A stretch of 64,000 bases of DNA, taken from Candidatus Saccharimonadales bacterium (GTDB lineage: Bacteria; Patescibacteriota; Saccharimonadia; Saccharimonadales; SZUA-47). Location: positions 7,015 to 71,014 of the forward strand of contig JBGSRU010000009.1 in assembly GCA_041737385.1 (NCBI GenBank), given 5' to 3'. Below are positions 822 to 46,759 of this stretch, piece after piece; the stretch's first letter is position 1, and every line of letters begins with the position of its first letter. A program made the position numbers and the translations under genes. The notes under the pieces are model-generated. The model saw nothing but the letters and a program-made list of their open reading frames with translations. It was not told the DNA's origin and did no database searches.

Positions 822-1099
822 TTCTCGTTGGAATGAGCTGGGTGAGACAATCCTTGAAATTGTTGCAAGCAGACTTTCTGAATCAAGCTAGCTTGATGTA
901 ATGAAATCTCGAGGTCGAGGAACATGACTGCAGAATGTGGGCGAGCCCCACTGGACTTTTTAAAATTACAGTATTCATGAGAAATTTTTCGAGTTTGAAG
1001 AAACAATAAGTTTGGAAGCGTCGTTATAATGATCGTAATAAGAACGATAACTCTTTTAAAATGAGCAAACAACTCTCCTAGTTGGTATACTTAGATGTA

Positions 1100-3121: not shown

Positions 3122-3823
3122 ATGGCAGGACACAATAAATGGTCAAAGATTAAACGGGGTAAAGAAGTAACCGATGCTAAGCGTGGTGCAACCTTCACGC
3201 GCATTGGTAACCAAATTGCGCTCGCAGCTCGTTCAGGAATAGATCCGTCGATGAATCCAACGCTGGCTCTTGCTATCGAGAAAGCAAAAGCCGCCAATAT
3301 GCCCAACGTTAACATTGAGCGTTCTATAGCCCGTGTGTCTGACAAAAGTGCTGCTCAGCTTCAAGAAGTTGTCTACGAAGGCTACGGACCAGGTGGCCTC
3401 GCAATAATCGTTGAATGTGCAACTGATAATATTAACCGTACTTATCCTGAAGTTCGTACGGTGTTTTCTAAGCGCGGTGGATCAGTGGCTGAAAAAGGCG
3501 CAGTCGCTTATCAGTTTGACCGTAAAGGCGTGATTTTAGTTAAGGCTAGCGGCGAAGACGCACTACTCACCATCCTCGACGCGGGAGCAGAAGATGCAAC
3601 TGAGGACGACGGCGAAATGCGCGTTATCACTGCACACAGCGATTTAGCAAAAGTGCGTGACGCAATAAAAGCAGAGGGCTTAGAAATAACTGAAGCTGAG
3701 CTGTCTTATGAACCTAACACAACTGTAGAGCTAGACGATGAGAAACAAGCAAAAGCTTTTGCGATGCTTGAAGCGTTTGAAGAGCTTGATGACGTAGTGA
3801 ACACGTACACGAACCTTGCATGA
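3122..3823 (+). CDS. yebC: YebC/PmpR family DNA-binding regulator
   Basis: MAGHNKWSKIKR..KRG start and full-length YebC-like sequence, sited immediately upstream of ruvC as in many bacteria. Confidence 0.9.
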   Translation: MAGHNKWSKIKRGKEVTDAKRGATFTRIGNQIALAARSGIDPSMNPTLALAIEKAKAANMPNVNIERSIARVSDKSAAQLQEVVYEGYGPGGLAIIVECATDNINRTYPEVRTVFSKRGGSVAEKGAVAYQFDRKGVILVKASGEDALLTILDAGAEDATEDDGEMRVITAHSDLAKVRDAIKAEGLEITEAELSYEPNTTVELDDEKQAKAFAMLEAFEELDDVVNTYTNLA

Positions 3824-4302
3824 AAATCCTAGGAATTGATCCAGGCTCGGGGATTGTTGGGTTCGGAGTTATTGAAAAAGGCCTGAAGCCTAAAATGCTG
3901 GATGCTGGTGTTATCCGAACGACTTTAGGCGAAGAAACGGCAAAACGCTTGGTCGAAGTCTATGAGGGTATGAAAGAAATCATTGCACAGACAAAACCAG
4001 ATGTGGCCGCGGTGGAAAAATTATTCTTTGCTCAAAACGTAACAACTGCAATGCAAGTGTCGCAGTCCAGAGGAGTAATACTACTAGCTCTCGCTGAAGC
4101 GGGCATACCGATTTATGAATACGCGCCCAATGAAATTAAAATGGCCATGACAGGATATGGTCATGCCAAAAAAGCTCAAATCCAAGAAATGGTTAAAGTG
4201 CAACTAGGACTAAAAAAAAGGCCACAAGATGATGCTGCTGACGCACTAGCGGTTGCGCTCACTCATCTAGGACAACCAGAGTTTCTGACTCAGAAAAAAT
4301 AA
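3820..4302 (+). CDS. ruvC: Crossover junction endodeoxyribonuclease RuvC
   Basis: ILGIDPGS start motif and 160 aa length. There is a 4-nt overlap with yebC. Confidence 0.85.
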   Translation: MKILGIDPGSGIVGFGVIEKGLKPKMLDAGVIRTTLGEETAKRLVEVYEGMKEIIAQTKPDVAAVEKLFFAQNVTTAMQVSQSRGVILLALAEAGIPIYEYAPNEIKMAMTGYGHAKKAQIQEMVKVQLGLKKRPQDDAADALAVALTHLGQPEFLTQKK

Positions 4303-7231: not shown

Positions 7232-7813
7232 TTATGGTTTAAGAAATGCTTTTAATGATAAACTCACGCTACTAATCTGGCCGGCTACAATTTTATCGGG
7301 AGTAATCTGAAGCGAATCAATCTGCACAAGCCTGCCGTTGTTCTCGATTTCTTTTAGTAAGACAAGCAACGTCTCGTAGCTTATGTCTTGGACAGATATA
7401 GTGAATGGGTAAGTGTATACTCCTGCTATCTCTCCAGTTTCAGTTCCAGAAAGATCGTTTGCTTCGTTACTGCCAGCAAAATTAAGTGCTCCAATATTTT
7501 GTATTGGAATCTCTGATTCAGCTACAGCTGTGTATATAACGTCCGCTACTAATTTTTCCTGTTCTTTTTTCTCTGGAAGTAATGTAGAAAGTAGCTTCTC
7601 AGTTTCTTCTTTAAGTTCCGTACTTTGCTTGGCACCATCAAGTGCTATGAGTTTCTCTTGCGCCACGTCACTATCTGTTTGTAGTCCAGCTAAGACATCT
7701 GCCTTTGCTTGTAGCTGTTGGTTTCCCCAGTAGAAAGCTCCTATAATACCACCAAATGCAAGTAGCATAACACCAATCATAGCGTAGAAAAATTGTTTTG
7801 GTTGTAATCTCAT
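7232..7813 (-). CDS. pilO: Type IV pilus assembly protein PilO-like
   Basis: N-terminal TM helix, then a coiled coil, then an alpha/beta domain. Its start overlaps the pilN stop by 4 nt. Confidence 0.5.
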   Translation of the reverse strand: MRLQPKQFFYAMIGVMLLAFGGIIGAFYWGNQQLQAKADVLAGLQTDSDVAQEKLIALDGAKQSTELKEETEKLLSTLLPEKKEQEKLVADVIYTAVAESEIPIQNIGALNFAGSNEANDLSGTETGEIAGVYTYPFTISVQDISYETLLVLLKEIENNGRLVQIDSLQITPDKIVAGQISSVSLSLKAFLKP

Positions 7814-24058: not shown

Positions 24059-24119
24059 GTCCTAGAGGACGTTCCTCTATAGGTGTAAAATCGTGTAACT
24101 TTGTATTTGAGAGGACTTG

Positions 24120-24204
24120 GTCACTTTCAGCGACCCCGAGATTTCATTGAATCAAATAAGTTTGATGAAGAAAGTCTCCTTCCGAAAGTCCACTGGACTT
24201 TCTC
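24120..24204 (-). repeat. Three-hairpin module, copy A (inserted in a tRNA-Pro-derived T arm)
   Basis: The minus strand reads GAGAAAGTCCAGTGGACTTTCGGAAGGAGAC...CGGGGTCGCTGAAAGTGAC. It is flanked by GAGAGGACTTG (24109-24119, identical to the tRNA-Pro T stem/loop) and ACCTCCAACC. Confidence 0.7.
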
Positions 24205-24255
24205 ACCTCCAACCTCTTCTCGGTCGGAGCTTCAAAGCCTCTCACGCCCAATGGT

Positions 24256-24431
24256 ACCAACTAAAAAGACCACTCGTGAAAGTGGTCATTTTAGTTGGTC
24301 GAGACCCACGCATTCTACTTGAACTGTTCAAATACATCTGTGAGAACCCTGAAAGTTCCGACAGGTTACTTGCTCGACTTAGACGTGAACCAAAACCTAG
24401 AATGGTCCAAATAGAAAATCTGGTGTACTAA
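24256..24431 (+). repeat. Direct repeat R2 (pairs with R1)
   Basis: Starts at the ACCA end of the degenerate tRNA-Pro 3' copy and includes the hairpin CCAACTAAAAAGACCAC..GTGGTCATTTTAGTTGG. Confidence 0.85.
24282..24431 (+). CDS. 49-codon ORF inside R2 (paralog of 23033-23182)
   Basis: It is in frame with the 104-aa track ORF 24117-24431, but only the last 49 codons are conserved with R1. Confidence 0.4.
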   Translation: MVILVGRDPRILLELFKYICENPESSDRLLARLRREPKPRMVQIENLVY

Positions 24432-24521
24432 TCTAGCGTGTTGACTTAAAACTGTCTTGTGTAAAGACTTCCTGATCCCTTTTTAGCGCATTAACAACAA
24501 TTTGGGCACATGTTTTGACTC

Positions 24522-25925
24522 CTATACGCAACAACTTAGTTTTGATATATCATTCTTGAACGAAAGAGCGGCGTACTTTATACCCTCAGATATGGTTGGG
24601 AACATTGGGATTGTATCTGTGACGTCATCAATTGTGTTTTTATTCTTAACAATCATCATAACCTCAGCAATCAGCTCACTTGCATGGGGTGCGACAATGG
24701 TCATGCCTTCAATAACTTCTGTCTTAGGATTAGCTGAAATGTTGAACAAGCCCTCGGTTTGCCTAGTTATGCCAGCTTTAGGTACTACTTCAAGCTGAAC
24801 TGTACGACACAAACACAGATTGTATCTACTCATCTGTTCTTCTTCGGTTAAACCAACACCTGCTAGTTGTGGGCTTGTGAATACAGCGAATGGAACAGTA
24901 TCATAATCTATTGAATTATTCTCGCTTTTAAGTGCGTTCAAGGTTGCAAGCGTTCCCTCACGACCAGCGGTCGTTTCTTGTCTTAGTGGAAGGTCAACGA
25001 CGTCCCCAACTGCAAATATATTCTTATTGTTGGTACTGTACGTGTTAGAAACCTTGATTGCTCCGTTTTTTGATAACTCAACGTTTGCCTTTTCGATGTT
25101 CATTTTGTCGGTATTAGGCGTTCTGCCAGAAGCAAGCAGTATCTCATCGACTACAAGTGTCTTTGATTCTTCGCCTACAGTGTAAGTTAGGTGTTTCTTC
25201 CCGTTCTTTGCCTCGACAGATTCAAGATTAGAACTGGTGATTATTTCGATACCTTCTTCTGATAGAATACCCTGTAGCCGAAATGCAGAACCTGTATCTA
25301 CTCTAGGCAGTATTCGTTCTGCTCGTTGCAAGATTGTAACTTTGCTTCCGAAACGAGAGAACATTTGTCCCCATTCCAATCCTTGTGCACCAGCACCAAC
25401 AACAGCTAATGACTTCGGTAGTTCTTTAAGCTCAACTGCATCAATGTGAGTTATATATCCAGCTTCTTCTAGCCCCTTTACGTCTGGTATCCGTGTTCGT
25501 GAGCCTGTTGCTATGATTATTTTTGGTGCTGTAAATGTTTCATTTTCAACAGCAACAGTTTTTTCGTTTTCAAAAGTGGCGTGCCCCTCAAGATAAGTTA
25601 CATGTTCAAGCTCGCCTAAGACGTCTTTATACTTCTTAGTTCGCATCTTCTCAACCATGGCTTGCTCATCAGCAATAACTTTGGCAAAATCAGCCTCTCT
25701 GACGTTAAACTCTAAACCAGGCACACCGTGATGTGTAGCATTGTGAACAAGTTCGGCTGCGTGAATAAGTGTTTTTGACGGGACACAGCCCACATTAACG
25801 CACGTACCGCCTAAAGGTAAGCCAGCATTGACCATCAAAGTCTTTGCTTTAAGTGTGTTGGCTTTAATGGCTGCAGAAAACGCTCCTGCACCGCCACCAA
25901 TAATAATAAGGTCGTATTGTTTCAT
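24522..25925 (-). CDS. merA: Mercuric reductase MerA (core enzyme, no N-terminal HMA domain)
   Basis: FAD motif IIIGGGAGAF, redox disulfide GGTCVNVGCVPSK and a C-terminal vicinal Cys pair (..KLSCCV). Confidence 0.8.
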   Translation of the reverse strand: MKQYDLIIIGGGAGAFSAAIKANTLKAKTLMVNAGLPLGGTCVNVGCVPSKTLIHAAELVHNATHHGVPGLEFNVREADFAKVIADEQAMVEKMRTKKYKDVLGELEHVTYLEGHATFENEKTVAVENETFTAPKIIIATGSRTRIPDVKGLEEAGYITHIDAVELKELPKSLAVVGAGAQGLEWGQMFSRFGSKVTILQRAERILPRVDTGSAFRLQGILSEEGIEIITSSNLESVEAKNGKKHLTYTVGEESKTLVVDEILLASGRTPNTDKMNIEKANVELSKNGAIKVSNTYSTNNKNIFAVGDVVDLPLRQETTAGREGTLATLNALKSENNSIDYDTVPFAVFTSPQLAGVGLTEEEQMSRYNLCLCRTVQLEVVPKAGITRQTEGLFNISANPKTEVIEGMTIVAPHASELIAEVMMIVKNKNTIDDVTDTIPMFPTISEGIKYAALSFKNDISKLSCCV

Positions 25926-25926
25926 T

Positions 25927-26247
25927 TTATGCTCCTAACATCTTAGCTACGTTTTGAAACTCTTTTTTATTGAGAGAGTAGAAGTTGTGCTTACCGTCCT
26001 TACGAACAGTCACAAGTTCCACATCTTTAAGACGAGCTAAACTATGTGAAGCATTGGAAATGCTTGTACCTACTAGTTCGGCTATGACTGTTACGTTAAG
26101 CTCGGGGTGGTGTCTGAGAAGGTAGCATATTTTTAATTTGGTCTGGTCACCAATGACACCGCATTGTCTGGCACATCTGTCGATTGCAACATTATCTACA
26201 AGTTCTTTTTTGATGTTATTGAGTTGAACGTTTGAACGCATATTCAA
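25927..26247 (-). CDS. ArsR/SmtB family metal-responsive transcriptional regulator
   Basis: Winged HTH (KLKICYLL...VTVIAELVGTSISNASHSLARLKDVELV). It sits 1 nt upstream of merA. Confidence 0.8.
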   Translation of the reverse strand: MNMRSNVQLNNIKKELVDNVAIDRCARQCGVIGDQTKLKICYLLRHHPELNVTVIAELVGTSISNASHSLARLKDVELVTVRKDGKHNFYSLNKKEFQNVAKMLGA

Positions 26248-26288
26248 ATGATACCATTACTTAAGCCCTGATTCAACAAGGCTTGTGC

Positions 26289-26343
26289 TACGTCGCACAA
26301 TCAACATTCTACGACATGCTCTAACAGGGGTAGAGCCATTTAT
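26289..26343 (+). repeat. Direct repeat R3b
   Basis: Copy of R3a. It overlaps the -10 and 5' UTR of the candidate arsR-merA promoter. Confidence 0.7.
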
Positions 26344-26366
26344 TTAGCGACTCGGGGCTTTGTCAA
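26338..26366 (-). promoter_or_regulatory. Candidate promoter of arsR-merA
   Basis: On the minus strand, TTGACA, a 17-nt spacer, then ATAAAT, about 90 nt upstream of the arsR start. Confidence 0.45.
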
Positions 26367-26444
26367 GTGCTAGTGTTGTTTTCGCCCACCCCTGTTAAAA
26401 AACCTACTACACCATAATAGGAATTTGCATACGTTTCATTAGGA

Positions 26445-27392
26445 TCAGACGTATATTCCTTGCTTAACTTTTATTGGGTCTAAAGGTTCGTTAGTAAACG
26501 GGTTAGTATAGCTGGTTAAGGGTGGTTCATCGGGTAAAGGAAACTTGCCAACCAGCCGAAATGGCTGTTTTGGCGGTGTTTCGTCACCTAGTTCTTCCCA
26601 TTCGCTTATCTTGCTAATTTCAATAGGCTCAAATACTATATCTTCCGATGACGTGAACGACTTGTCGCTTAGGTCATAAAAGCCACGAGCCATTTGCCCA
26701 ACAGCAGAACCTTTTCGCTTATTAGCCTTAACTACATACCTGTAAGTAAGGTCTACTATTATCGTGTCTCCACGTAGGTCAATTATTGGAACTTGTTCAA
26801 ATCTGTACTGGTATGAGCCTTCTTTGATAATGTCTATAGTATCGTCACTCCAATGGTCTCTAAATAATTCGTATATATTTCTTGGTGGCTCTGAGCCGTC
26901 AGATATTTTCATGTCCCATACTAGTGGCGAGAATCTAAAGTCTTGTCCTGTTTGTTCAAGACCATAAGAGATTGAATCAAGGTAAAATCCTTCCGCAATC
27001 ACTGGTGCTTTAATCATAAAGTTACTTGTATCTGCATGACCTTTATCTATTAGTACCACTGTCTTAATCTTGTAATGCTTGGCAGTTCGTAGGGCAGACT
27101 TAGTAAAGCCTGCATTTGAAATCATTATTCCGCTTTTTGCATTCTCATCCTTTAGCTTATTTGCAAATTGCTCAACCTTTGGCAGGTCTACTGGCTTTGA
27201 ATGATCCTTGCACTCAATATCAATGAAATCTTTGTCGCCAACCTTTATATCTATTTGTCTTGGAGCTTGGCTAATCACGCCAGTCACTTTTTGATTTGGT
27301 TTTACAATCTGATTACTAAAAACCTTGGAACTAGTCTGCATTGCACTTTCTTCAAAGCTTTTCCATTTAGGTTTCTTGGTGTTATCAGGCAT
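26445..27392 (-). CDS. Mrr-like restriction endonuclease domain protein (PD-(D/E)xK) with uncharacterised C-terminal domain
   Basis: N-terminal WKSFE...IDIKV...IDIECKDH...GIMISNAGFTKSA matches the Mrr_cat pattern. The C-terminal ~170 aa is unassigned. Confidence 0.6.
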   Translation of the reverse strand: MPDNTKKPKWKSFEESAMQTSSKVFSNQIVKPNQKVTGVISQAPRQIDIKVGDKDFIDIECKDHSKPVDLPKVEQFANKLKDENAKSGIMISNAGFTKSALRTAKHYKIKTVVLIDKGHADTSNFMIKAPVIAEGFYLDSISYGLEQTGQDFRFSPLVWDMKISDGSEPPRNIYELFRDHWSDDTIDIIKEGSYQYRFEQVPIIDLRGDTIIVDLTYRYVVKANKRKGSAVGQMARGFYDLSDKSFTSSEDIVFEPIEISKISEWEELGDETPPKQPFRLVGKFPLPDEPPLTSYTNPFTNEPLDPIKVKQGIYV

Positions 27393-27413
27393 TTACATAT
27401 CCTCAAGGATTAT

Positions 27414-27806
27414 CTATAAACTCGCAAGCACAATCGCTTCTTTAATCTCTTTTTCAATGCTATCGCCATATTTCTCAAGTTCTTCTAAAGTAACCCAAGA
27501 AAACTCTTGGTGCTCATCACTTAATACCACGTCATTGGTATTGGTGTCGCAAAGAAAGAACAATGCAACTATATGCTTAAGTTCACCTTCTGGTTTTGCG
27601 AACCACTCGTCAACGTGAATAACCTTACCTACAACTAAATCTGTAATACCAGTTTCCTCACTAGCTTCTCGGCGTAGACCGTCTTCCAGCTTTTCACCTT
27701 TTTCAAGTCTTCCGCCGACTGCTTGCCATCTTTCACCTTCACGAACAATAAGAAACTTTCCATCTTGATTTTTAATTACTGCTTTTACGGCTACTTGTGT
27801 ATCCAT
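27414..27806 (-). CDS. NUDIX hydrolase
   Basis: Nudix box GGRLEKGEKLEDGLRREASEETGI. Confidence 0.85.
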   Translation of the reverse strand: MDTQVAVKAVIKNQDGKFLIVREGERWQAVGGRLEKGEKLEDGLRREASEETGITDLVVGKVIHVDEWFAKPEGELKHIVALFFLCDTNTNDVVLSDEHQEFSWVTLEELEKYGDSIEKEIKEAIVLASL

Positions 27807-28612
27807 TATTGTTTCTGCTCCATTGTTAAATAAGTGTTTCGAATAGCTTCAATTAGATCGTTATCTAGCTCATTACTCCTAGCCATTTCTGATAGTAGAG
27901 CTAGGTCTTTTTTGGGTACTTGGCTTGGCTTGAATGCTATATTGGCTGTCATCATCTCCGCTAAGTCTTCTTTCCATACTTGTCCAAAATTATCTAATGA
28001 TTGCTCGCTCATGAAATCGTAAACAGCAGGTATATTTGCACCATACTTACTTAGTAGCCTGTGGGCTTCTACTCCGACTGCTAGGTTTGCATATCTAGCA
28101 AGGTTAAATGTGAGCTTTGCGAGTGTAGCAGAAGGAATATCTCCCATATATCGTGTACTACCCATAGCCTCAAACACTTCTTTATTATCTTCAAATGCTT
28201 TTTTTGAACCCTCAACTAAAAACTCAATTGTTCCACTAGTTGCATGGTTCTTGCCACCAATCATAGGTGAACTTAAAAATTGTTTGCCTTTAGACTCAAA
28301 TATACTCGCAAACTCTTTAGCTATTTCAGGTGTTAATGTACTTGTCTCAATAATCGTCACGATGTTGTTGTTTTCGGCGAGTAATTCTTCAATAACTGTT
28401 CGAGAAGCATCTGGATTAGGTAAACAGAGTATGACAACTTCACTAACATTAGCAATGTCGGTAACACTATTCGCCTTTTGAATACCAAATTGTTGAAGCT
28501 TAGTTGTTTGTTCATTATCAGTATCGAAGCCTATTAAGCTAAAGTCCTTAGAAAGTATGTTTTTCGCCATACCACTTCCCATGTTTCCTAGACCTACAAA
28601 ACCAATTTTCAT
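27806..28612 (-). CDS. NAD(P)-dependent oxidoreductase (3-hydroxyisobutyrate/6-phosphogluconate dehydrogenase-like)
   Basis: MKIGFVGLGNMGSGMAKN Rossmann start. ATG 28612 is preferred over the 30-codon upstream extension in the track. Confidence 0.75.
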   Translation of the reverse strand: MKIGFVGLGNMGSGMAKNILSKDFSLIGFDTDNEQTTKLQQFGIQKANSVTDIANVSEVVILCLPNPDASRTVIEELLAENNNIVTIIETSTLTPEIAKEFASIFESKGKQFLSSPMIGGKNHATSGTIEFLVEGSKKAFEDNKEVFEAMGSTRYMGDIPSATLAKLTFNLARYANLAVGVEAHRLLSKYGANIPAVYDFMSEQSLDNFGQVWKEDLAEMMTANIAFKPSQVPKKDLALLSEMARSNELDNDLIEAIRNTYLTMEQKQ

Positions 28613-28876
28613 AACTACATAATAACAGGGCAAAATTGGAATAGCCACACAATACCTCAACATATACCTTAAAGCTTGTCCAGTGCTCTTAGGATGCTTC
28701 ACAGAGCAACTTTTAACTAAGGGTTCTTGTTCATCTTTTGCATTGTACGAATACCGAGCGACTGCTCACGATTTTTTTTCTTAGATTTTCTACCCTCAAC
28801 GCCATTTATTCACGCAACAATACTATTATTATCTGACAGTGGTTTTCTTAAAAACTCAGTAAACGTATGAGAGTTC

Positions 28877-29107
28877 TTAGGCAATTGTCCAGAAATTCAT
28901 CGTAACTTTGGTTTGGTTTTCTTTGGCGGTAGTTATTCTTTCGGCGAATACCTGATTGTTCTTCAGATAGTAATAAAAACTACTCCTCGAAATCCCTGCA
29001 AAGCGACAACTGTCGGTAATGTTGGTGTTATGGGATATTGCGTCAGCCAAGATAATGACTGTACGCATAGTTATAATTTGTGGTCTTCCTACTGATTTCT
29101 TAATCAT
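28877..29107 (-). CDS. Small helix-turn-helix protein (candidate element regulator or directionality factor)
   Basis: 76 aa. ITDSCRFAGISRSSFYYYLK is a resolvase/transposase-type HTH. Confidence 0.45.
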   Translation of the reverse strand: MIKKSVGRPQIITMRTVIILADAISHNTNITDSCRFAGISRSSFYYYLKNNQVFAERITTAKENQTKVTMNFWTIA

Positions 29108-29192
29108 TAAACTCCTTTTGTTTTGATATGTATCTATTTTAATTATCTCATTTACACTATTTTGGGTAGGTAACCTATAATATTAAATAATT

Positions 29193-30041
29193 ATGGGTAC
29201 TCCAAAACCGAAGAAAGCTAACGACTATGCAGTAGCAAAAGCACTGAACGAGGTGGTCTATAGTATATTGGTCTTTGTATATGCGGGATGGGGTACTGAT
29301 CTATATAAAGAACATGAAATTGCGGAGATTAACCGCACATACATTCTGATAACGCACGAATTAGAAAAAATATACGCACGTAACCCCGAATTACTTGCAA
29401 TAAAGCCCGATCCGATTTGGAGACTTTTTGAAGTACTGAAAAACACCACGGAGACTATAGCCGACCACTTTAGTGATTCCGACGACCATGGTGCAGAGCA
29501 TACAGTAAGGGTAGAAAAGTTATGTATCCTTGCTGGTGTAGATGAGCCAAGTTATACACCAGAGCAACAGAAATTGGTGGATAATTCTAAAGTGGCAATT
29601 AGTAATTATGCTGCGTTGGTCAAGAAGGAAGGCGAGAAATTGTTAGCAGTAAAAAAAGAATACGGCTGGGAGATGATGAATTACTATCTGACTTACAAAC
29701 CAGACGGCACAATCTTGATAAACGACGTATTGAAACTTAAGAAAGTTCATGCAGGATCCATCACGGAAAAGTTGCTAGAACAATCCATAAAGAATCCTAA
29801 TACTAAATTCAAGCCAGAACTCGGAAAGACAGCGAGAAATATCAGCACAATAGTTAGTAGTGCTGGCTTTACGCCTGTTCTAAGGGATTTGTTTTTCCCA
29901 ACTGTTAGTGGTGACACCGTCGTATTCCGTCCATTTGTATCTAAATTACAGGCAGATACAGAACGCATAGATAGAGATGAACTAGATTTGCAGCTCAGAG
30001 AAAACGGTGCTATCTGCAGAGTAGTATTTGAACCAAAGTGA
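29193..30041 (+). CDS. Hypothetical protein (282 aa) within the island
   Basis: Long ORF in which I recognised no family. Confidence 0.45.
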   Translation: MGTPKPKKANDYAVAKALNEVVYSILVFVYAGWGTDLYKEHEIAEINRTYILITHELEKIYARNPELLAIKPDPIWRLFEVLKNTTETIADHFSDSDDHGAEHTVRVEKLCILAGVDEPSYTPEQQKLVDNSKVAISNYAALVKKEGEKLLAVKKEYGWEMMNYYLTYKPDGTILINDVLKLKKVHAGSITEKLLEQSIKNPNTKFKPELGKTARNISTIVSSAGFTPVLRDLFFPTVSGDTVVFRPFVSKLQADTERIDRDELDLQLRENGAICRVVFEPK

Positions 30042-30182
30042 ACCGAAAAGAACCATATGAAACGACATCAAACTGATACAGCGACTTAAAGATATATAAG
30101 TTCTTTAATGGTGATAGGACGAATAATCCGAGTTCACCTAACTATAATCGTCTTGTTAGGAGGGCTCGAATACGGAGCCGAT

Positions 30183-30368
30183 ATGTCATTAAGTAATGAG
30201 CAAGAAAATAAGAATGTTACCAGTCAAGAAACTAACAGCATAAGCGATACAAGAATAAACCTAGCTGCCGTTGTCATTGGGCTAGAAAAAACTAGAGCCA
30301 CAATACAAGATTTAACAGATAACGAACTGTATGTATTCGATTTGCACGGGAACAAAGTATTACTATAA
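30183..30368 (+). CDS. Small hypothetical protein
   Basis: An internal ATG with a GGAG-like RBS is preferred over the 30108 start. Support is weak. Confidence 0.25.
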   Translation: MSLSNEQENKNVTSQETNSISDTRINLAAVVIGLEKTRATIQDLTDNELYVFDLHGNKVLL

Positions 30369-30420
30369 ATATTTAGCAAGAGTCTACACGAACTATTGAA
30401 TCAGTCTATAATACGACTAA

Positions 30421-32085
30421 ATGAATGATGATATAGCAACAACCAAACAATTATTACAGATGATGCAGACCTTGTATCCTAATCAGGATCCAAGAGATAT
30501 TGACCCAACAACTTTGCGATATGTCATATATGCTAGAAAATCTACTAGAAGTGAAGAACGACAAGAACGAAGTATACCTGACCAGATTGCAGACTGTTAT
30601 CTCAGAGAGGTAGACCTATACGGGTTAACCGTTATTGGTAAGCCAATCCGTGAGAAGCAAAGTGCAAAAGAACCAGATATACGACCTAAGTTTCGACAGA
30701 TGATTGATGACATAAAAGCTGGTAAGTATGACGGTATCATCGCATGGCACCCTGATAGGCTTGCAAGGAATATGAAAGAGGCAGGAGAGATAATTGACCT
30801 ACTGGACAAGGGCATTCTTAAAGACATACGCTTCGCTACAAGTAGCTTTGAAAACAGCCCAACAGGTAAGATGTTACTCGGCATATCTTTTGTTCTATCT
30901 AAACAGTATTCAGAGCACTTGAGTGAAAGCGTAACAAGAGGTAATAGACGTAAGACAGAAGGTGGTGTGTTCTTCGCTGATATGAAGCACGGTTACTACA
31001 TAGGGGACGGTAAGCTGTTTCCTGACGGCAATAACTTCATACTTATTAGACAAGCATTTGAGAAACGTCTTGAGGGTTGGGGTCAGAAAGAAATAGCTAA
31101 CTGGCTAAATACTCAAGGCTATATGATTAGAAAAAAGAACAAAAAGCCCCAAACATTCAAGTGGGACAAGGACAATATTAGTAAGCTATTTCGTGATACG
31201 ACTAATGCTGGAGTTCTTAAATACGGTCAGACATTCACTGACCTGACAGACTTTTATGATTTTGAAGCTGTTGTATCTGTTGAAGAGTTTCTTAAAATCA
31301 ACAAGGTCAAAGACTTGTCTGATCCTAAGCTAATGTCATCAATCTTGGTCAAGTCTAGAGAAGCCACGAAAGCAAATCTGTTAAGGGGTATGGTGTATTG
31401 TGGTTTTTGCGGTAAATCTTTTAGCTCTGGAATAACTGTCAAAAAAGACAAAGAAACTAGAAAGATACTCACTAGTCGTTACTTTTACCGATGTGAAAAC
31501 GAAGAATGTGAATTTAAGAATAAAAGTGTCAGAGCAAAAACTGTAATAGAGGTTGCAATCAAGTTCCTGTCTGAGCACCTGTACACGACTAAAGATAACT
31601 ATGATAGATATGTCTCTGACGCTAAAGAGTACGCTTCTACACAAGCCAAAGCTCTTGATGGCGACATTGCCAGCTTAGCTCGACAAATAGGCAATAAGAA
31701 AGCCGAGTACAGTCGCACAAAAGAGATTATCAGAGACAAGCCAGCTCTTGCCAAGCACTACAACTTAGATGAGATTGAAGCTGAGCTAAAAGCCATTACT
31801 ACTGACCACGACAAGCTTGCTAAGAGCCGTAAAGACCTCAAGCAATCGGTTTTGGAATATTCTGAATATCTCGAACTTTTTGAAAACATAGGTGTTATTT
31901 TAACAAAAACGCATGATATGGGGTTATTAGACGAGAACATCAAAAAGTTCTTCTTGAACTTTTCTGTGAAGCAATGGGGACTAGGTAAAAAACAGAGGTC
32001 AGAAGTTACCTTCAACTTAAATGAACCCTTCGCAGGGTTCATAAAATCGAACAATTTCGTTCATGGTCGGGGTGAGAGGACTTGA
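30421..32085 (+). CDS. Large serine recombinase (integrase)
   Basis: Resolvase catalytic domain (YVIYARKSTRSEERQERSIPDQ, DGIIAWHPDRLARN), recombinase domain, zinc ribbon (CGFCGK...CENEEC) and a coiled coil. The last 22 nt overlap the 3' end of tRNA-Pro. Confidence 0.9.
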   Translation: MNDDIATTKQLLQMMQTLYPNQDPRDIDPTTLRYVIYARKSTRSEERQERSIPDQIADCYLREVDLYGLTVIGKPIREKQSAKEPDIRPKFRQMIDDIKAGKYDGIIAWHPDRLARNMKEAGEIIDLLDKGILKDIRFATSSFENSPTGKMLLGISFVLSKQYSEHLSESVTRGNRRKTEGGVFFADMKHGYYIGDGKLFPDGNNFILIRQAFEKRLEGWGQKEIANWLNTQGYMIRKKNKKPQTFKWDKDNISKLFRDTTNAGVLKYGQTFTDLTDFYDFEAVVSVEEFLKINKVKDLSDPKLMSSILVKSREATKANLLRGMVYCGFCGKSFSSGITVKKDKETRKILTSRYFYRCENEECEFKNKSVRAKTVIEVAIKFLSEHLYTTKDNYDRYVSDAKEYASTQAKALDGDIASLARQIGNKKAEYSRTKEIIRDKPALAKHYNLDEIEAELKAITTDHDKLAKSRKDLKQSVLEYSEYLELFENIGVILTKTHDMGLLDENIKKFFLNFSVKQWGLGKKQRSEVTFNLNEPFAGFIKSNNFVHGRGERT

Positions 32086-32140
32086 ACCTCCGACCTCGCG
32101 GTCCCAAACCGCGCACTCTAGCCAACTGAGCTACACCCCG
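32064..32140 (-). tRNA. tRNA-Pro (anticodon UGG), CCA encoded
   Basis: CGGGGTG-TA-GCTC-AGTTGGCTA-GAGT-G-CGCGG-TTTGGGA-CCGCG-AGGTC-GGAGG-TTCAAGT-CCTCT-CACCCCG-A-CCA. A TATAAT box lies at 32154-32159. Confidence 0.92.
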
Positions 32141-32188
32141 ATGATGTATATGTATTATAACTTATAAAGGTTCAAATCTGAGGACTTG

Positions 32189-32275
32189 GTCACGTACCGC
32201 GACCCCGTCGCCACTTCTTTGAAAACAAGTTTACAAGAGTGAACTCCCTTGCGAAGTGCGCAATCGGCACTTCTC
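32189..32275 (-). repeat. Three-hairpin module, copy B
   Basis: The minus strand reads GAGAAGTGCCGATTGCGCACTTCGCAAGGGAG...CGGGGTCGCGGTACGTGAC, flanked by a tRNA 5' fragment and CAAGTCCTCA. Confidence 0.7.
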
Positions 32276-32302
32276 ACTCTAGCCAACTGAGCTACACTCT
32301 GG
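32276..32302 (-). pseudogene. tRNA 5' fragment (acceptor plus D arm only)
   Basis: CCAGAGTGTAGCTCAGTTGGCTAGAGT. Its 21-nt D-arm region is identical to tRNA-Pro, the acceptor strand differs, and there is no anticodon arm. Confidence 0.7.
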
Positions 32303-33994: not shown

Positions 33995-34624
33995 ATGAAA
34001 ATTGCAATTGATGAATCCGGTGATAGTGGACGTAAGTTCTGGAGAGGTTCTAGTAGATGGTTTATTTTAACGGCTGTAATTGTCTCTGATAGTGAATACT
34101 GTGGCCCAACCTGTCAGGCTGTAGATCAATACAGAAAAATTAATGGGAACGGTGCAGAGCTGCATTTTGCGCATAATTCTCATTTGCAGCATACAGAGTT
34201 CTTGTCTTATATGCATGATAAAGAATTTGTCTTTGCGAGCGTTGTCATAGACAAAAAGTTGTTGTTTAGACGCAAGCCACAATTGTTCCGGAGTAAAATG
34301 ATATTTTTACAATTTGCATTTGACCGACTTTTTCAAGAACTGCACCCATGGCTAGATAATCCTGTGGTACTTATAGATACCGCGGGCCCCAAGCATTTTA
34401 ATCGTGCATTGTCTCGTCACTTGATGAGACTATTTGGCCCAAAGCATAAAGGCGATATCAGCTCGATCTCACAAGCAAAAGCAGTAGATAGTAGAAGCGA
34501 GCCACTTGTTCAGCTTGCGGACTATGTTTGTGGAGCAATTCACCACCATGTTGACGGAGCGCATCCTACGAGTAACACATTTGAAAATCTTCTTAGCGAT
34601 AAAGGGAAGATATTCTACGTTTAA
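33995..34624 (+). CDS. DUF3800 domain protein
   Basis: MKIAIDESGDSG start and LVQLADYVCGAI near the C-terminus, both typical of DUF3800. Confidence 0.7.
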   Translation: MKIAIDESGDSGRKFWRGSSRWFILTAVIVSDSEYCGPTCQAVDQYRKINGNGAELHFAHNSHLQHTEFLSYMHDKEFVFASVVIDKKLLFRRKPQLFRSKMIFLQFAFDRLFQELHPWLDNPVVLIDTAGPKHFNRALSRHLMRLFGPKHKGDISSISQAKAVDSRSEPLVQLADYVCGAIHHHVDGAHPTSNTFENLLSDKGKIFYV

Positions 34625-35170: not shown

Positions 35171-35359
35171 TAGTACCTCAGGAGGGAATCGATCTACCTT
35201 CGGCAGCCCCGAAACTACATCTATGAAAGCAATCTTTCAAGTGAAGGTTTCCTTACAAACTGCCACAGGCAGTTTTCACCCCGACCTTTTTGGTCGGGCG
35301 TTCGACTCGCTTCGCGAGTACCAAACTAAAAACCAGCCTAGAAAGGCTGGACTTTAGTT
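35171..35359. mobile_element. Miniature cargo-less insertion at the 3' end of tRNA-Arg(UCU)
   Basis: It begins with a 19/22 copy of the tRNA-Arg 3' end (35171-35192). It then carries module C1, an inverted degenerate copy of the tRNA 3' part ending in ACCA (35292-35323), and a hairpin. Confidence 0.5.
35193..35277 (-). repeat. Three-hairpin module, copy C1
   Basis: The minus strand reads GAAAACTGCCTGTGGCAGTTTGTAAGGAAAC...CGGGGCTGCCGAAGGTAGA, flanked by GGTCGGGGT and TCGATTCCCTCC. Confidence 0.7.
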
Positions 35360-35362
35360 TGG
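35321..35362 (-). terminator. Hairpin/terminator abutting the CCA end of tRNA-Arg(UCU)
   Basis: An 18-nt-arm stem, CCAAACTAAAAACCAGCC..GGCTGGACTTTAGTTTGG, with two mismatches. Confidence 0.55.
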
Positions 35363-35436
35363 TACCCCGGGAGGGAATCGAACCCCCGACCTGTGGGATA
35401 GAAGCCCATTGCTCTAATCCGCTGAGCTACCGGGGC
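35360..35436 (-). tRNA. tRNA-Arg (anticodon UCU), CCA encoded
   Basis: GCCCCGG-TA-GCTC-AGCGGATTA-GAGC-A-ATGGG-CTTCTAT-CCCAC-AGGTC-GGGGG-TTCGATT-CCCTC-CCGGGGT-A-CCA. A TATAAT box lies at 35452-35457. Confidence 0.9.
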
Positions 35437-35480
35437 GAGTACCAGATAAGTATTATAACAGGGGTTCGATCCAGAATCGA

Positions 35481-35566
35481 GCCACCTTTGGCGGCCCTGA
35501 AACTTCATGATTGAAAAACAAGTTTTCATCAGAAGATTTCCTTGCAAAATGCTACCAGCATTTCTC
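35481..35566 (-). repeat. Three-hairpin module, copy C2
   Basis: The minus strand reads GAGAAATGCTGGTAGCATTTTGCAAGGAAATC...CAGGGCCGCCAAAGGTGGC. Confidence 0.7.
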
Positions 35567-35620
35567 ACCCCGACCTGTGGGATAGAAGCCCATTGCTCTA
35601 ATCCGCTGAGCTACCGGGGC
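35567..35620 (-). pseudogene. Truncated second copy of tRNA-Arg(UCU), positions 1-54 only
   Basis: It is 100 percent identical to 35383-35436, and the identity continues through the 10-nt upstream flank. It ends at the T-loop where module C2 begins, with no matching 3' acceptor strand downstream. Confidence 0.75.
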
Positions 35621-35645
35621 GAGTACCAAATCGCTTAAAATCAAT

Positions 35646-35768: not shown

Positions 35769-37292
35769 CTAGAGGTCGTGGACAACTTCTATCTGTGCAC
35801 CGAGACTATTAAGACGCTCTGCAAGATCTTCGTAGCCTCTATTTATCGTATAAACATTGCGCAACATTGATTTGCCTGGAGCAGCGAGCATCCCAATGAG
35901 CAATAAGCTTGCTGGCCGCAACGCAGGCGGGCAGGCCAAGTCAGCTCGCGTGAATTTAGTGATTCCTGTAATATAGACGCGGTGCGGATCAGCTAATTCT
36001 ACGTTTGCACCAATTTTAGTCATCTCTGTGTAGTAGATTGCTCTGTTCTCATAGGTCCAATCGTGAATTAGAGTGCGACCTTTAGCCACGGCGCAAATTG
36101 GGACGAAATACGGAAGATTATCTTGATTTAGCCCTGGATAAATATTGGCATGAATCTTATCTTCGAGCGAGATAAGCGAGCCATTATGTTTATGAACGGT
36201 TATATCAACGAGATCAGTAAATCCATTTTTTGCTTTATAGCGCCCACTTTGATCATAGATGAGTCCCATTTTTTTCAGTTTGAGCATTTCTAGAGTCATA
36301 AAATCAATCGGCACACGCTTAATTGTTATTTGTGAGTTGGTTGTTACTGCTGTACTTACAAAAAACATTGCTTCAATTGGATCTTCTGCTGGCGCATAGA
36401 CGACGTTTTGTTTGATCTCTTTTGCTGATCCGGTAATCGTGAGTGTCATAGAGCCGATGCCGTCAATTTTCACCCCAAGCTTTTCCAGATATCCGCAGAC
36501 ATCCTGCACCATGTAATTCGCACTTGCCATTTGAATTATAGTTTTCCCAGGGGCTTTTGCTGCAGCCATAACGACATTTTCAGTCACAGTATCTCCTGAT
36601 TCATACAAGGTTATGTGCTCAGGTTGCATAGGCTTACAGTTGATTTGGTAGAATCTATTTTTTGCTTCAATTGATACGCCAAACTCTTCTAGCCCGTATA
36701 AATGAGGCTTTACCGTGCGCTCGCCGAGTTTACAGCCCCCGGCATATGGTATTTTGAATTCTTTTAGCTCATGCATCAGGGGACCTATCATCATCAGTAC
36801 GGAACGGGTTTTTCGAGCTGCTTTAGCATCCAGATTTTCCATTTTCAGATGAGCTGGTCGCTTTATCTCGAGGTCGTTACCTTCGAGCCAACGTACTTTA
36901 ACTCCTATACTCTCAAGCACTTCAATAATTCGGAATACTTCTTCAATGCGCGGAAATGATTTAAATGTTGTCGTACCTTTGTTTAGCAGACTAGCGCATA
37001 GCAGCCCTACAGCCGCGTTTTTACTGGTTTTAAGAGTGATTGTGCCAGCGAGCTCATGCCCGCCATCAATTGAGAGGTTTACTCCTTGATTACCAACAGA
37101 TATTAACGGCTTCTCTAGTACTTCACTGATACGGCTCAACATATCTAGGCTGAGGTTCTGGTTGCCTTTTTCAATACGATTGATAGCAGATTGTGACGTA
37201 CCGAGCTTACTGGCAAACTCGGACTGAGTAAGCCCTCGTATCTGTCGCAACTCAGATATAAGAGAACCGATGCGTTCGTTTGTTTCTTTCAT
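35769..37292 (-). CDS. murA: UDP-N-acetylglucosamine 1-carboxyvinyltransferase MurA fused to an N-terminal XRE-type HTH domain
   Basis: Residues ~10-65 form an HTH (LRQIRGLTQSEFASKLGTSQSAINRIEKGNQNLSLDML). The rest is full-length MurA, including YAGGCKLGERTVKPH with the active-site Cys. Confidence 0.85.
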   Translation of the reverse strand: MKETNERIGSLISELRQIRGLTQSEFASKLGTSQSAINRIEKGNQNLSLDMLSRISEVLEKPLISVGNQGVNLSIDGGHELAGTITLKTSKNAAVGLLCASLLNKGTTTFKSFPRIEEVFRIIEVLESIGVKVRWLEGNDLEIKRPAHLKMENLDAKAARKTRSVLMMIGPLMHELKEFKIPYAGGCKLGERTVKPHLYGLEEFGVSIEAKNRFYQINCKPMQPEHITLYESGDTVTENVVMAAAKAPGKTIIQMASANYMVQDVCGYLEKLGVKIDGIGSMTLTITGSAKEIKQNVVYAPAEDPIEAMFFVSTAVTTNSQITIKRVPIDFMTLEMLKLKKMGLIYDQSGRYKAKNGFTDLVDITVHKHNGSLISLEDKIHANIYPGLNQDNLPYFVPICAVAKGRTLIHDWTYENRAIYYTEMTKIGANVELADPHRVYITGITKFTRADLACPPALRPASLLLIGMLAAPGKSMLRNVYTINRGYEDLAERLNSLGAQIEVVHDL

Positions 37293-46486: not shown

Positions 46487-46682
46487 TGGAGGGCCAGCGT
46501 GGACTTGACTCACCTTTGGCGAGCCCCGAACTTCGTCTTTGCAAACCAGTTTGCAAGAGAAGATTCGTTTCCAAAATGCCACCGGCACTTTTCACCCCAG
46601 GCACCCTTTTGGCGTGTCCGATGTTCAAGTTCCACCAACCCTACCATATGAAAATACCCACGGCGAGGTGGGTATTTTCATA
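46487..46682. mobile_element. Miniature cargo-less insertion at the 3' end of tRNA-Lys
   Basis: It begins with a 22/24 copy of the tRNA-Lys 3' end including CCA (46487-46510). It then carries module D, an inverted degenerate tRNA-Lys T-arm copy, and a 16-bp perfect hairpin. Confidence 0.55.
46509..46593 (-). repeat. Three-hairpin module, copy D
   Basis: The minus strand reads GAAAAGTGCCGGTGGCATTTTGGAAACGAATC...CGGGGCTCGCCAAAGGTGAG, flanked by CCTGGGGT and TCAAGTCCACGCTGGCCCTCCA. Confidence 0.7.
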
Positions 46683-46683
46683 T
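46646..46683 (-). terminator. Perfect 16-bp hairpin abutting the CCA end of tRNA-Lys
   Basis: ATATGAAAATACCCAC-GGCGAG-GTGGGTATTTTCATAT. Confidence 0.65.
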
Positions 46684-46759
46684 GGAGGGCCAGCGGGGAC
46701 TTGAACCCCGGACACCCTGCTTAAGAGGCAGGTGCTCTAACCAGCTGAGCTACTGGCCC
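46683..46759 (-). tRNA. tRNA-Lys (anticodon CUU), CCA encoded
   Basis: GGGCCAG-TA-GCTC-AGCTGGTTA-GAGC-A-CCTGC-CTCTTAA-GCAGG-GTGTC-CGGGG-TTCAAGT-CCCCG-CTGGCCC-T-CCA. Confidence 0.92.

Follow-up and report, generated by a model that had tools for sequence, protein, structure and literature searches.

An 86-nt strand-specific structured module in partial tRNA gene copies of Saccharibacteria, a candidate core of small mobile elements

Analysis of a 64-kb stretch of Saccharibacteria DNA (the window) and of related genomes identified an 86-nt structured module which lies, almost always, inside a partial copy of a tRNA gene placed beside the intact gene. The distribution of the copies suggests, with a probability that we put at about one half, that the module forms the conserved core of a family of small mobile elements which have a single-strand structure, encode no protein and are non-autonomous. 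No description of such an element was found in the literature searched.

The module is composed of TGAGAA, hairpin 1, GCAAG, the long hairpin 2, GGG and hairpin 3, which ends in GTGAC. It is a discrete unit with fixed ends: T1 G2 A3 at the 5' end and GTGAC at the 3' end are invariant, 3 nt separate hairpin 1 from the 5' terminus, and the 3' terminus is also the end of hairpin 3. The loops of hairpins 2 and 3 vary in length by expansions around a conserved core. A search for an autonomous version, with the module ends around an ORF, found only expanded-loop variants of about 105-110 nt.

Covariation was analyzed for the 113 distinct module sequences among the matches listed. Standard pairs occupied 95.2% of the pair cells, compared with 76.8% when partners were shuffled and 25-47% when they were slid by 1-3 columns; double changes were found at 26 of the 31 pairs, and the observed values were reached in none of 500 shuffles. 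RNAalifold independently gave the same fold (30 pairs, 25 of them compensatory). This is in agreement with the first-pass annotation of the window, which had described three hairpins kept by compensatory changes. The wobble pair of hairpin 3, on which that annotation had based a strand argument, is G-U in 110 of the 113 sequences and A-U in the other 3; the opposite strand would have a C-A mismatch there, and the argument therefore holds. A single-stranded fold of the module is under selection on one strand. The fold may be that of an RNA or of folded single-stranded DNA, and the new structured family that had been proposed is real, strand-specific and maintained by covariation.

As the annotation had supposed, the module matches no known RNA family: at gathering thresholds Rfam 15 gave only tRNA in the whole window, and in E-value mode, up to 10, the regions of C1, C2 and D yielded only chance miRNA-type matches on the terminator palindrome. 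Known ribozymes (hammerhead, hairpin, twister and similar) were rejected, as the CUGAUGA of copy C2 is not conserved across the family and nothing was found in Rfam. A retron-type non-coding RNA was also rejected, no reverse transcriptase adjoining any copy in the window.

The covariance-model search that had been recommended was performed with R1, a model built from 113 family members. The five copies already described (A, B, C1, C2 and D) were recovered at their places on the minus strand, with 80-92 bits and E-values of 1e-18 to 1e-21, the best boundaries counting the conserved leading T. A sixth, degenerate copy on the plus strand had been missed, bringing the total to six modules in 64 kb (Table 1). 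Around this copy are the remnants of another module and a 3' fragment resembling tRNA-Lys, into which it is nested; no tRNA gene is nearby.

Table 1. Module copies in the window and the tRNA-derived parts of their units
Feature	Coordinates	Strand	Basis or remark
Module D	46509..46594	-	86 nt, TGAAAAG...GGTGAG; type I unit, tRNA-Lys(ctt); R1 92.2 bits
Unit D antisense piece X' TGGTAGGGTTGGTGGAACTTGAACATCGG and short hairpin	46595..46646	-	Sequence, unit fold
Displaced copy of tRNA-Lys positions 55-76, TCAAGTCCACGCTGGCCCTCCA	46487..46508	-	Sequence, flank mapping
Intact tRNA-Lys(ctt) (46683-46759) and palindromic terminator CCATATGAAAATACCCAC..GTGGGTATTTTCATATGG	46647..46759	-	ARAGORN, Rfam tRNA
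Module C1	35193..35278	-	Type I unit downstream of tRNA-Arg(tct); R1 84.0 bits
Rest of unit C1	35279..35359	-	Terminator, X', T-stem repeat
Unit C1 terminator	35333-35350	-	Terminator scan
Unit C1 antisense piece X' TGGTACTCGCGAAGCGAGTCGAACGCCCGACC	35292-35323	-	X' alignment score 36
Unit C1 repeat of T-stem 5' strand	35279-35286	-	Sequence
Displaced, diverged copy of tRNA-Arg 3' part, TCGATTCCCTCCTGAGGTAC	35173..35192	-	Sequence, flank mapping
Intact tRNA-Arg(tct)	35360..35436	-	ARAGORN, Rfam tRNA; C2 on upstream side, C1 downstream
Module C2	35481..35567	-	Type II unit upstream of tRNA-Arg(tct); R1 92.5 bits
Partial tRNA-Arg(tct) copy, positions 1-53	35568..35620	-	Identical to intact gene
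Type II tail of C2	35437..35480	-	Sequence; layout common to other type II loci
Module B	32189..32276	-	Type II unit upstream of tRNA-Pro(tgg); R1 80.5 bits
B tail: CAAGTCCTC, antisense piece AGATTTGAACC, TATAAT (32154-32159)	32141..32188	-	Sequence
Intact tRNA-Pro after B tail	32064-32140	-	Sequence
Partial tRNA-Pro copy GTGTAGCTCAGTTGGCTAGAG, about positions 5-26	32277..32298	-	Mapping stops at tRNA position 26
Module A	24120..24205	-	Type I unit of tRNA-Pro; R1 90.8 bits
Unit A: terminator hairpin, X', repeat GGTTGGAGG	24206..24287	-	Sequence, fold
Shortened displaced copy of tRNA-Pro T loop and T stem, CAAGTCCTCTCA	24108..24119	-	Sequence
Sixth module copy, degenerate	843..928	+	R1 52.9 bits, E 1e-11; sequence

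Between the partial copy that bears the module and the intact tRNA lies a short antisense tRNA piece, and the resulting units, of about 175-200 bp, occur in two orders. In type I, the intact tRNA and its terminator are followed by the reverse complement of the 3' half of the tRNA, then by positions 44-53, the module and positions 56-76. In type II, the promoter and the tRNA as far as the insertion site come first; the module, a few bases of tRNA and a short antisense piece are next, and a new -10 box precedes the intact tRNA. The repeat of tRNA positions 55/56-76 downstream of the module in type I matches the intact gene exactly over its first 16 nt in more than 20 loci. Palindromes mark the turn-arounds: one is the hairpin of the terminator, the other a short hairpin close to tRNA position 44. 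This sense-antisense-sense layout recurs at about 90 independent tRNA loci among the matches listed, each with a module.

Unit D shows the type I layout, which recurs in at least about 50 loci. All three module hairpins are present in its MFE fold, X' is the reverse complement of the tRNA-Lys 3' half, the short hairpin after X' repeats the variable loop and T-stem 5' strand (GGGTGCCTGGGG) in its 3' strand, and the displaced copy is identical to the intact gene at 21 of 22 positions. Three G-U pairs in this unit had prompted the idea that the acceptor helix of a tmRNA-like or tRNA-like RNA is under selection. The idea was rejected because the mismatches of the helix formed by the antisense piece are G-T and A-C in equal number across loci (16 each); such a lack of strand-specific selection fits a scar and not a functional helix.

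In the type II unit of C2, the partial tRNA copy was detected by Rfam as a partial tRNA match (35566-35620, 30.6 bits). Its tail consists of the rest of the T loop (TCGATTC), a loop TGG, the antisense piece Y ATCGAACCCC, which is the reverse complement of the uninterrupted GGGGTTCGAT, the -10-like TGTTATAAT and a leader repeat TGGTACTC. Module B is flanked by a D arm at its left and a T loop at its right. Its tail region is 83% identical to locus L017 over 216 nt. L017 carries two modules, and B could derive from such a two-module version by deletion between the modules. In unit A, X' (24222-24259) is a diverged reverse complement of the tRNA-Pro 3' half, and an island of about 8 kb now separates the unit from its tRNA-Pro.

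Mapping of the flanks onto the neighboring intact tRNA showed that the module replaces 2 nt at RRG^NN^Y sites, at tRNA positions 53/54-56, 24|27 and 37|40 and in the D loop. Purines occupied -2 and -3 at essentially all of the 110 distinct sites among the matches listed, with no C or T, and the +1 base was C in 80% and T in 16% of them; the G at -1 was forced by the search pattern, and the 5' flank is read as RRG with that limit. The site classes are the T loop, the D loop, the position after the D arm (26/27) and the anticodon loop. Modules were also found in antisense tRNA sequence (L014, L121, L055 and L109) and in the single-stranded linker of another module; in the latter case the module alone is inserted into CGGGG^T^CGCGG (L037, L019, L048, L097, L112 and 843-928 of the window). 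Tandem and truncated copies occur as well. As judged from the mapped flanks, the sites correspond to exposed loops and junctions of the tRNA sequence.

The first-pass annotation had placed the insertion after the T that follows the 5' strand of the T stem, splitting the T loop. This is correct for A, C1, C2 and D, but the T loop is one site among those listed above, and B, which had been taken for an exception, represents a second recurrent site, many other genomes having modules joined to a D arm in this way. In each bearer copy the tRNA is incomplete at its 5' or its 3' side, and one base is missing at every mapped junction. We know of no transposition chemistry that matches an exact 2-nt replacement. 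By hand modelling, the junctions did not fit a serine-recombinase crossover with a 2-bp core, an IS110-type CT core or a classical target duplication. A classical MITE was excluded too: the ends TGAGAA.../...GTGAC are not inverted repeats, and the target loses 2 nt with no duplication.

A pattern scan of reference genomes yielded at least 116 loci, about 107 of which have true copies among the matches listed; nearly all of these loci belong to Saccharibacteria MAGs, and among these matches the family is confined to Saccharibacteria. The module is present in more than 100 related genomes, and the scan loci and the window together hold at least 144 copies. Because the pattern was taken from the window copies, with the G preceding the module and a number of core bases fixed, the search itself has partly shaped both the module diversity and the target motif. 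For nearly all of about 115 copies among the matches listed, an intact tRNA gene was found within 100 nt on the same strand and, where mapped, it was the same tRNA as the bearer copy. At least 17 tRNA identities are used, at four tRNA positions. The proposed association with tRNA-derived sequence is thus near-universal, with the correction that the bearer is never a whole tRNA but a partial copy beside the intact gene; as to whether further copies abut T-loop fragments, nearly all lie near a tRNA and not always at the T loop. Six pattern matches in viral contigs were all due to chance, with no hairpins, and gave no sign of a phage-borne module.

Near-identical copies have different tRNAs as neighbors, whether they come from a single genome or from several. 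Module pairs at least 90% identical and with known sites shared the tRNA isoacceptor in 3 of 65 cases among the matches listed, and two copies on one contig, beside tRNA-Arg and tRNA-Gly, are 98.8% identical with no other common flank. The tRNA-His gene bears a module in 9 syntenic relatives but not in the window; the reverse holds for tRNA-Arg(tct), which has two modules in the window and lacks them in the 9 relatives. Look-ups of the exact proteins of three neighbors of unit D returned no empty and filled pair of one locus in close strains. Neither the window nor the recurrent neighbors of the scan loci gave a transposase, reverse transcriptase or nuclease that could be linked to the module, and mobility is therefore deduced only from the distribution. 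These data appear to fit the module itself as the mobile unit better than a recombination site of tRNA-targeting elements.

Movement could proceed through a single-stranded intermediate, either single-stranded DNA or an RNA copied back to DNA, with a trans-acting enzyme, encoded elsewhere, that would recognize the invariant termini together with the hairpins. A working tRNA gene would be destroyed by an insertion, and therefore the only events to persist would be those which leave an intact gene and a partial, module-bearing copy. The layout may have been left by repair or replication of the broken target through fold-back or template switching; equally possible is a small circular intermediate in which tRNA arms enclose the module and which recombines with the gene by a crossover. 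More speculatively, and with considerable doubt on our part, the insertion pathway itself might write the templated sense-antisense-sense tRNA copy and so rebuild the essential gene. The module would then be a ribozyme-like or protein-binding-RNA-like core of an undescribed transposition or retro-homing system, whose pathway would be shared by a second family, M2.

Some observations are less easily reconciled with a mobile module. At orthologous loci the module is better conserved than its flanks (0.85-0.97 versus 0.62-0.73 identity), and the slower module evolution, together with the abundance at L024, where most tRNA genes in 8 kb bear a module, would also fit a host function. The layout also recurs too faithfully for an easy explanation as accidental repair.

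A host function could be that of a cis-acting structured RNA domain, co-transcribed with the tRNA, in type II as its 5' leader and in type I as a 3' trailer reached by read-through; it might serve as a processing, decoy or protein-binding element or be a small ribozyme, the tRNA-like flanks helping to present the module. The proximity of nearly all copies among the matches listed to an intact tRNA on the same strand, the RNA-like covariation and conserved G-U, the loop expansions around a conserved core, as in functional RNAs, the retention at the orthologous tRNA-His in 9 species, the slow evolution of the module relative to its flanks and the situation at L024 all speak for it. We nevertheless consider it unlikely: high-scoring intact copies are antisense to, and convergent with, tRNA-Phe (L014, L121 and L109), nested, tandem and truncated copies exist, unrelated tRNAs bear near-identical copies, occupancy varies among orthologous tRNAs, the flanking helix has no G-U bias and half of the tRNA genes of the window have no module. 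An intron of tRNA genes, self-spliced or protein-spliced like archaeal introns at non-canonical positions, would account for related insertions in D, anticodon and T loops and for nested, twintron-like copies, but is effectively refuted and deserves hardly any credence. Removal in silico with five junction variants gave an ARAGORN tRNA in at most 3 of 115 cases among the matches listed, bearers are incomplete, one base is absent at each mapped junction and an intact gene adjoins in nearly all loci among the matches listed. [quoted passage not shown]

The first-pass annotation had considered a recombination site of tRNA-targeting elements, and the module could accordingly be the arm or attachment-site region of integrase-driven elements, the units of about 175 bp being deletion derivatives still mobilized in trans by a recombinase, for example one of the large serine recombinases found at tRNA 3' ends. 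Type I units do contain the direct repeat of the tRNA 3' part that such elements leave, as an intact tRNA with element-supplied 3' end and terminator followed by the displaced repeat of positions 55-76; there are tandem arrays, the partial tRNA copy of L027 looks foreign, its identity with the resident gene being, by eye, only roughly 70%, and in the window and at L043, L077, L114 and L122 genes of large serine recombinases run convergently toward the 3' ends of tRNAs. Yet an integrase (serine recombinase) occurs within 8 kb in only 6 of 116 loci among the matches listed, one site-specific recombinase would not explain at least 17 tRNA identities and four positions, the module interrupts the displaced copy in its T loop, at a place where an unbroken crossover region would be expected, and nested copies are bare modules with no att repeats. 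The large serine recombinase of the window was likewise rejected as the module enzyme: its homologs are near few loci, and its island has its own junction, TTTGAACaGTTCAAGT (24316-24331), only lies between unit A and tRNA-Pro and is a separate, later insertion. We hold this reading to be quite improbable, and slightly more so a specific version of our preferred explanation, a miniature IS200/IS605-type derivative (PATE or REP-like) moved by an HUH (Y1) transposase encoded elsewhere. As in PATEs, strand-specific hairpins adjoin both ends with no terminal inverted repeats and no target duplication; the 5' flank has a short conserved motif, target loops are single-stranded in folded DNA and G-T pairs are tolerated. 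Against this, no Y1 transposase or TnpB was found in the 64-kb window or among the recurrent neighbors of the 8-kb loci, insertion of IS200/IS605 elements entails no loss of target bases and no duplication or inversion of the flanks, and the 5' motif is only RRG, its G at -1 being set by the search pattern.

Several described systems share features with the module. Mobile tRNA introns at non-canonical positions of Thermoproteales archaea have reportedly been described by Fujishima and colleagues, with transposition between tRNA genes; those introns sit in complete genes, with bulge-helix-bulge motifs cut by the splicing endonuclease. They too are short related sequences in D, anticodon and T loops of many tRNA genes in one lineage, but here the host is bacterial, the bearers are incomplete with an intact gene alongside and removal restores no tRNA. 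PATEs and REP/BIME sequences, which are moved by Y1 HUH transposases, are likewise small and protein-less, with strand-specific end hairpins, no inverted repeats or duplication and single-stranded targets; for the module, however, no transposase was found in the window or its recurrent neighbors, two target bases are replaced, the target is partially duplicated in sense-antisense-sense order and the interior is strongly conserved with RNA-like covariation. Campbell-type integrative elements in tRNA genes resemble type I units in supplying the tRNA 3' end and terminator, in the displaced direct repeat and in tandem arrays, and real serine-recombinase islands use the same tRNA genes as the modules. 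Unlike them, the units have 175-200 bp and no integrase, a 5'-type (type II) exists, the displaced T loop is interrupted and an antisense piece is always present.

Rickettsia palindromic elements and Neisseria Correia elements, which have inverted ends or insert in frame into proteins, are also hairpin repeats of roughly 100 nt with many copies in small genomes, some inside RNA genes; they are not known to be associated with tRNA loops or with a partial duplication of the target. Template switching or hairpin-primed repair gives rise to DUP-TRP/INV-DUP and fold-back inverted duplications, which in known cases are sporadic rearrangements. The module flanks show the same exact sense-antisense-sense order with turn-arounds at palindromes, but at about 90 independent tRNA loci among the matches listed and always with the module as cargo. 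In Patescibacteria, group I introns occur at position 35/36 of tRNA genes (PMC13011429), and that report does not mention T-loop insertions or pseudogenes. Both cases concern insertions in tRNA genes of the same superphylum that standard annotation misses (PMC13011429), but the module has no Rfam match of any kind, group I included.

Saccharibacteria genomes are very small and streamlined, yet many of their tRNA genes bear one or two units. If the module is mobile, a selfish element would colonize essential, universally conserved genes without killing the host, and this would point to an enzyme acting on tRNA-gene loops; if it is a host RNA, Rfam would lack a structured RNA that occurs throughout the phylum and covaries strongly. 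Partial tRNA copies should be expected in tRNA annotation of these genomes. The near-palindromic blocks of tRNA, terminator and antisense piece may affect assembly and, possibly, tRNA transcription and processing. In the window, the tRNA genes that carry no module have plain terminators, and the gene content around the modules is that of ordinary chromosomal genes.

The sequence of the window confirmed the five copies of the three-hairpin module that the first-pass annotation had placed on the minus strand (A, B, C1, C2 and D). The alignment of these copies, flanks included, showed a mean column identity of 58%. A covariance model of the module (R1) scored them at 80-92 bits and detected a sixth, degenerate copy that had been overlooked; a terminator precedes this copy, and no tRNA gene is close by.

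Positions of modules and associated features in the window (module boundaries include the leading T)
Feature	Position	Strand	Remarks
Module A	24120-24205	-	type I
Module B	32189-32276	-	type II
Module C1	35193-35278	-	type I
Module C2	35481-35567	-	type II
Module D	46509-46594	-	type I
Sixth module copy	843-928	+	inside remnants of another module and a tRNA-Lys-like 3' fragment
Island, about 8 kb	24316-32140		in tRNA-Pro T loop; far junction TTTGAACaGTTCAAGT at 24316-24331
Large serine recombinase ORF	30421-32085	+	converges on tRNA-Pro, overlapping its 3' end
DUF3800 protein gene	33995-34624	+	between tRNA-His and tRNA-Arg cluster
TGGTACTC, two copies	35437-35448; 35621-35632	-	precedes intact and partial tRNA-Arg(tct)
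HTH_3 domain fused to EPSP-synthase/MurA-like enzyme	35769-37292	-	

Reference genomes, one per species, were scanned with a pattern of the positions conserved in the window's own five copies. Since several bases were forced in this pattern, the true diversity of the family is underestimated. The scan returned at least 116 loci; among the matches listed, about 107 of the 116 held true copies, nearly all in MAGs of Saccharibacteria or Saccharimonadales or in unnamed bins. The same scan of viral contigs gave six matches only, all due to chance and hairpin-free. An alignment of 113 distinct copies among the matches listed (A2) had a mean column identity of 76%. No match to the module was obtained from Rfam 15, and no description of it was found in the literature searched. 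The module family is real and large, and it appears to be limited to one phylum and undescribed.

On the minus strand each of the five window copies formed three hairpins, as had been proposed, and RNAalifold predicted the same structure unaided. In A2 (copies among the matches listed), 95.2% of pair cells were standard, against 76.8% for shuffled partners and 25-47% for partners slid by 1-3 columns; none of 500 shuffles attained the observed pairing values. The compensatory changes seen by eye were borne out, both sides being altered at 26 of the 31 pairs. In hairpin 3, the pair third from the loop was G-U in 110 copies; the other 3 had A-U. The pairing statistics and the retained G-U pair assign the fold to the module strand, as RNA or single-stranded DNA.

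The window is a stretch of ordinary Saccharibacteria chromosome (RecA, RuvB, type IV pilus genes, Mur ligases, RNase Y, SHMT), its housekeeping genes showing 65-72% nucleotide identity to those of Saccharibacteria MAGs. The association with tRNA genes held widely: nearly all of the approximately 115 modules among the matches listed share the strand of an intact tRNA gene. Module-free tRNA genes, such as tRNA-His and tRNA-Arg(tcg) of the window, are followed by plain terminators.

Mapping of the module flanks onto the adjoining intact tRNA showed that two target bases are replaced by the 86-nt unit T-GAGAA...GTGA-C. The T loop is indeed used (after G52/G53 and before T55/C56), but it is not the only site: modules were also found after the D arm (between 24 and 27), in the D loop and in the anticodon loop of tRNA-Pro(GGG) (between 37 and 40). 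Copy B, previously taken as an exception because of its D-arm junction, occupies a normal second insertion site; it would be derivable, by deletion between the modules, from a tRNA-Pro copy like that of L017, which carries one module after the D arm and one in the T loop. The G at target position -1 was forced by the scan pattern and is uninformative. Among the matches listed (110 distinct sites), the two bases 5' of this G included a pyrimidine in none, and the base 3' of the module was C in 80% and T in 16%. Target sites of the same type are also occupied within antisense tRNA-Phe copies (L014, L121, L109), within an antisense tRNA 3'-end piece (L055) and inside other modules, at CGGGG^T^CGCGG (L037, L019, L048, L097, L112 and the sixth window copy). 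These nested copies consist of the module alone, so the module can move without tRNA arms.

Two layouts were recognized. In type I (about 50 loci among the matches listed), the intact tRNA is followed by a palindromic terminator, an antisense copy of the tRNA 3' half (X'), a small loop, a second copy of tRNA positions ~44-53, the module and a copy of positions 55/56-76, often accompanied by another terminator; 62-92 nt separate the tRNA 3' end from the module. The tRNA 3' half, terminator and X' form a single long hairpin (-50 to -72 kcal/mol). In type II (about 35 loci among the matches listed), the module is preceded by a tRNA copy that begins at the tRNA start and breaks off at the insertion site, in some cases including the promoter; then come 5-17 more tRNA bases, a short antisense piece, a TATAAT box and the intact gene, which starts 37-79 nt after the module. 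At L075 up to about 55 nt of upstream sequence is duplicated. Tandem arrays exist (L082, L113, L022), the outermost unit ending at arbitrary points. At L066 (after tRNA-Gly 7244-7320) and L022 (~2960-2990), a terminator is followed by an antisense tRNA 3'-half copy with no module; these units appear to be truncated directly after the antisense piece.

Whatever the layout, the antisense piece separates the intact gene from the module-bearing copy. It is complementary to the uninterrupted target (in type II typically ...TTGAACC, the complement of the T-stem/T-loop junction) and never contains the module complement. Where X' and the downstream tRNA copy failed to match, G-T and A-C occurred equally often (16 each), hence the long X' helix is free of strand-specific selection; given this balance, the three G-U pairs of unit D, considered as a sign of a selected helix, are anecdotal. 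In our reading, the antisense piece is a trace left by unit formation and not a functional RNA helix. A sense-antisense-sense order with turn-arounds at palindromes is the expected product of fold-back priming or template switching. Alternatively, a small circle with tRNA arms around the module might cross over with the gene, in the 3' arm to give type I and in the 5' arm to give type II.

Several comparisons point to movement of the module itself. Module pairs at least 90% identical and with known neighbours adjoined the same tRNA isoacceptor in only 3 of 65 cases among the matches listed. Two modules on one contig (L058 and L066), 98.8% identical, flank tRNA-Arg(tcg) and tRNA-Gly(gcc) and share no other flanking sequence. 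A module next to tRNA-Pro(cgg) in another genome shares 91% identity with module D; the housekeeping genes of that genome share about 70% with those of the window. Within the syntenic HTH-MurA/SHMT neighbourhood, nine relatives have a module at tRNA-His, which is module-free in the window; the window has two modules at tRNA-Arg(tct), where these relatives have none. At L026, tRNA-Gly and tRNA-Arg are 1 nt apart. At most orthologous loci module identity was 0.85-0.97 against 0.62-0.73 for the surroundings; at some the module had diverged more strongly than the sequence around it, an indication of replacement. An 8-kb stretch of a related genome (L024, 4422-7949) has three tRNA genes, all of them module-bearing: both sides of tRNA-Pro are occupied, as are tRNA-His and tRNA-Arg(tct). 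The majority of tRNA genes may be occupied in some genomes.

We put at about even odds (0.5) that the module is a non-autonomous mobile element, structured as a single strand, which colonises tRNA-derived loops and whose fixed copies always come with an inverted-then-direct partial duplication sparing the intact tRNA. An intron was rejected: in silico removal of the module, with five junction variants, gave a tRNA across the junction by ARAGORN in at most 3 of 115 cases, and the bearer copies lack one tRNA end and one base at every junction. That the folded module serves the host as an RNA seems unlikely to us.

That the module is an arm region of integrase-driven elements we regard as quite improbable. 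The window does hold a large serine recombinase, in an island inside the tRNA-Pro T loop, and recombinase homologs lie near modules at 6 of the 116 loci among the matches listed, four of the six converging on a tRNA 3' end; these recombinases have the same target as the module yet fail to explain it. Past the far junction of the island come a decayed tRNA 3' end and then the terminator, X' and module of unit A. Judged from this junction and the order beyond it, the island is a later, classical insertion that displaced unit A from tRNA-Pro. Its cargo includes a pyridine-nucleotide disulphide oxidoreductase, an ArsR-type regulator and an Mrr-like nuclease.

The synteny of the HTH_3-EPSP-synthase/MurA-like gene with the tRNA-Gly/His/Arg cluster is kept in nine related loci. 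Candidate structured RNAs have been reported close to DUF3800 genes; Rfam gave no match of this kind in the window. The sequence preceding tRNA-Arg(tct), TGGTACTC, is complementary to the GTACCA 3' end of this tRNA, which would allow pairing between leader and CCA end within the precursor.

Another module family, M2, is unrelated to the first and measures about 75-95 nt (...GGTTCGG|CGTAGCG..AAAAAGTGTTTACATTTTTTCG..GAGCGGAGGAGC-hairpin-GCGATAT|CC...). Its layout is identical (tRNA, terminator, antisense piece, cargo, tRNA 3' copy), and it lies later in the T loop. It was seen at L022 (~3640-3760), L032 (~2480-2560), L037 (~4040-4150), L048, L054, L055, L059, L094 and L113, and not in the window. 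Other short cargos, about 55-70 nt long and arranged in this way, follow tRNA-Tyr (L099, 2031-2116) and tRNA-Ser (L118, 2072-2161), which suggests a wider set of T-loop-resident modules. Variants of the module of about 105-110 nt (L115 5882-5990, L109 3915-4021 and L019 7345-7450) keep the usual 5' part, but their hairpin 2 differs (CCGGAAAC...) and the loop of hairpin 3 is far longer.
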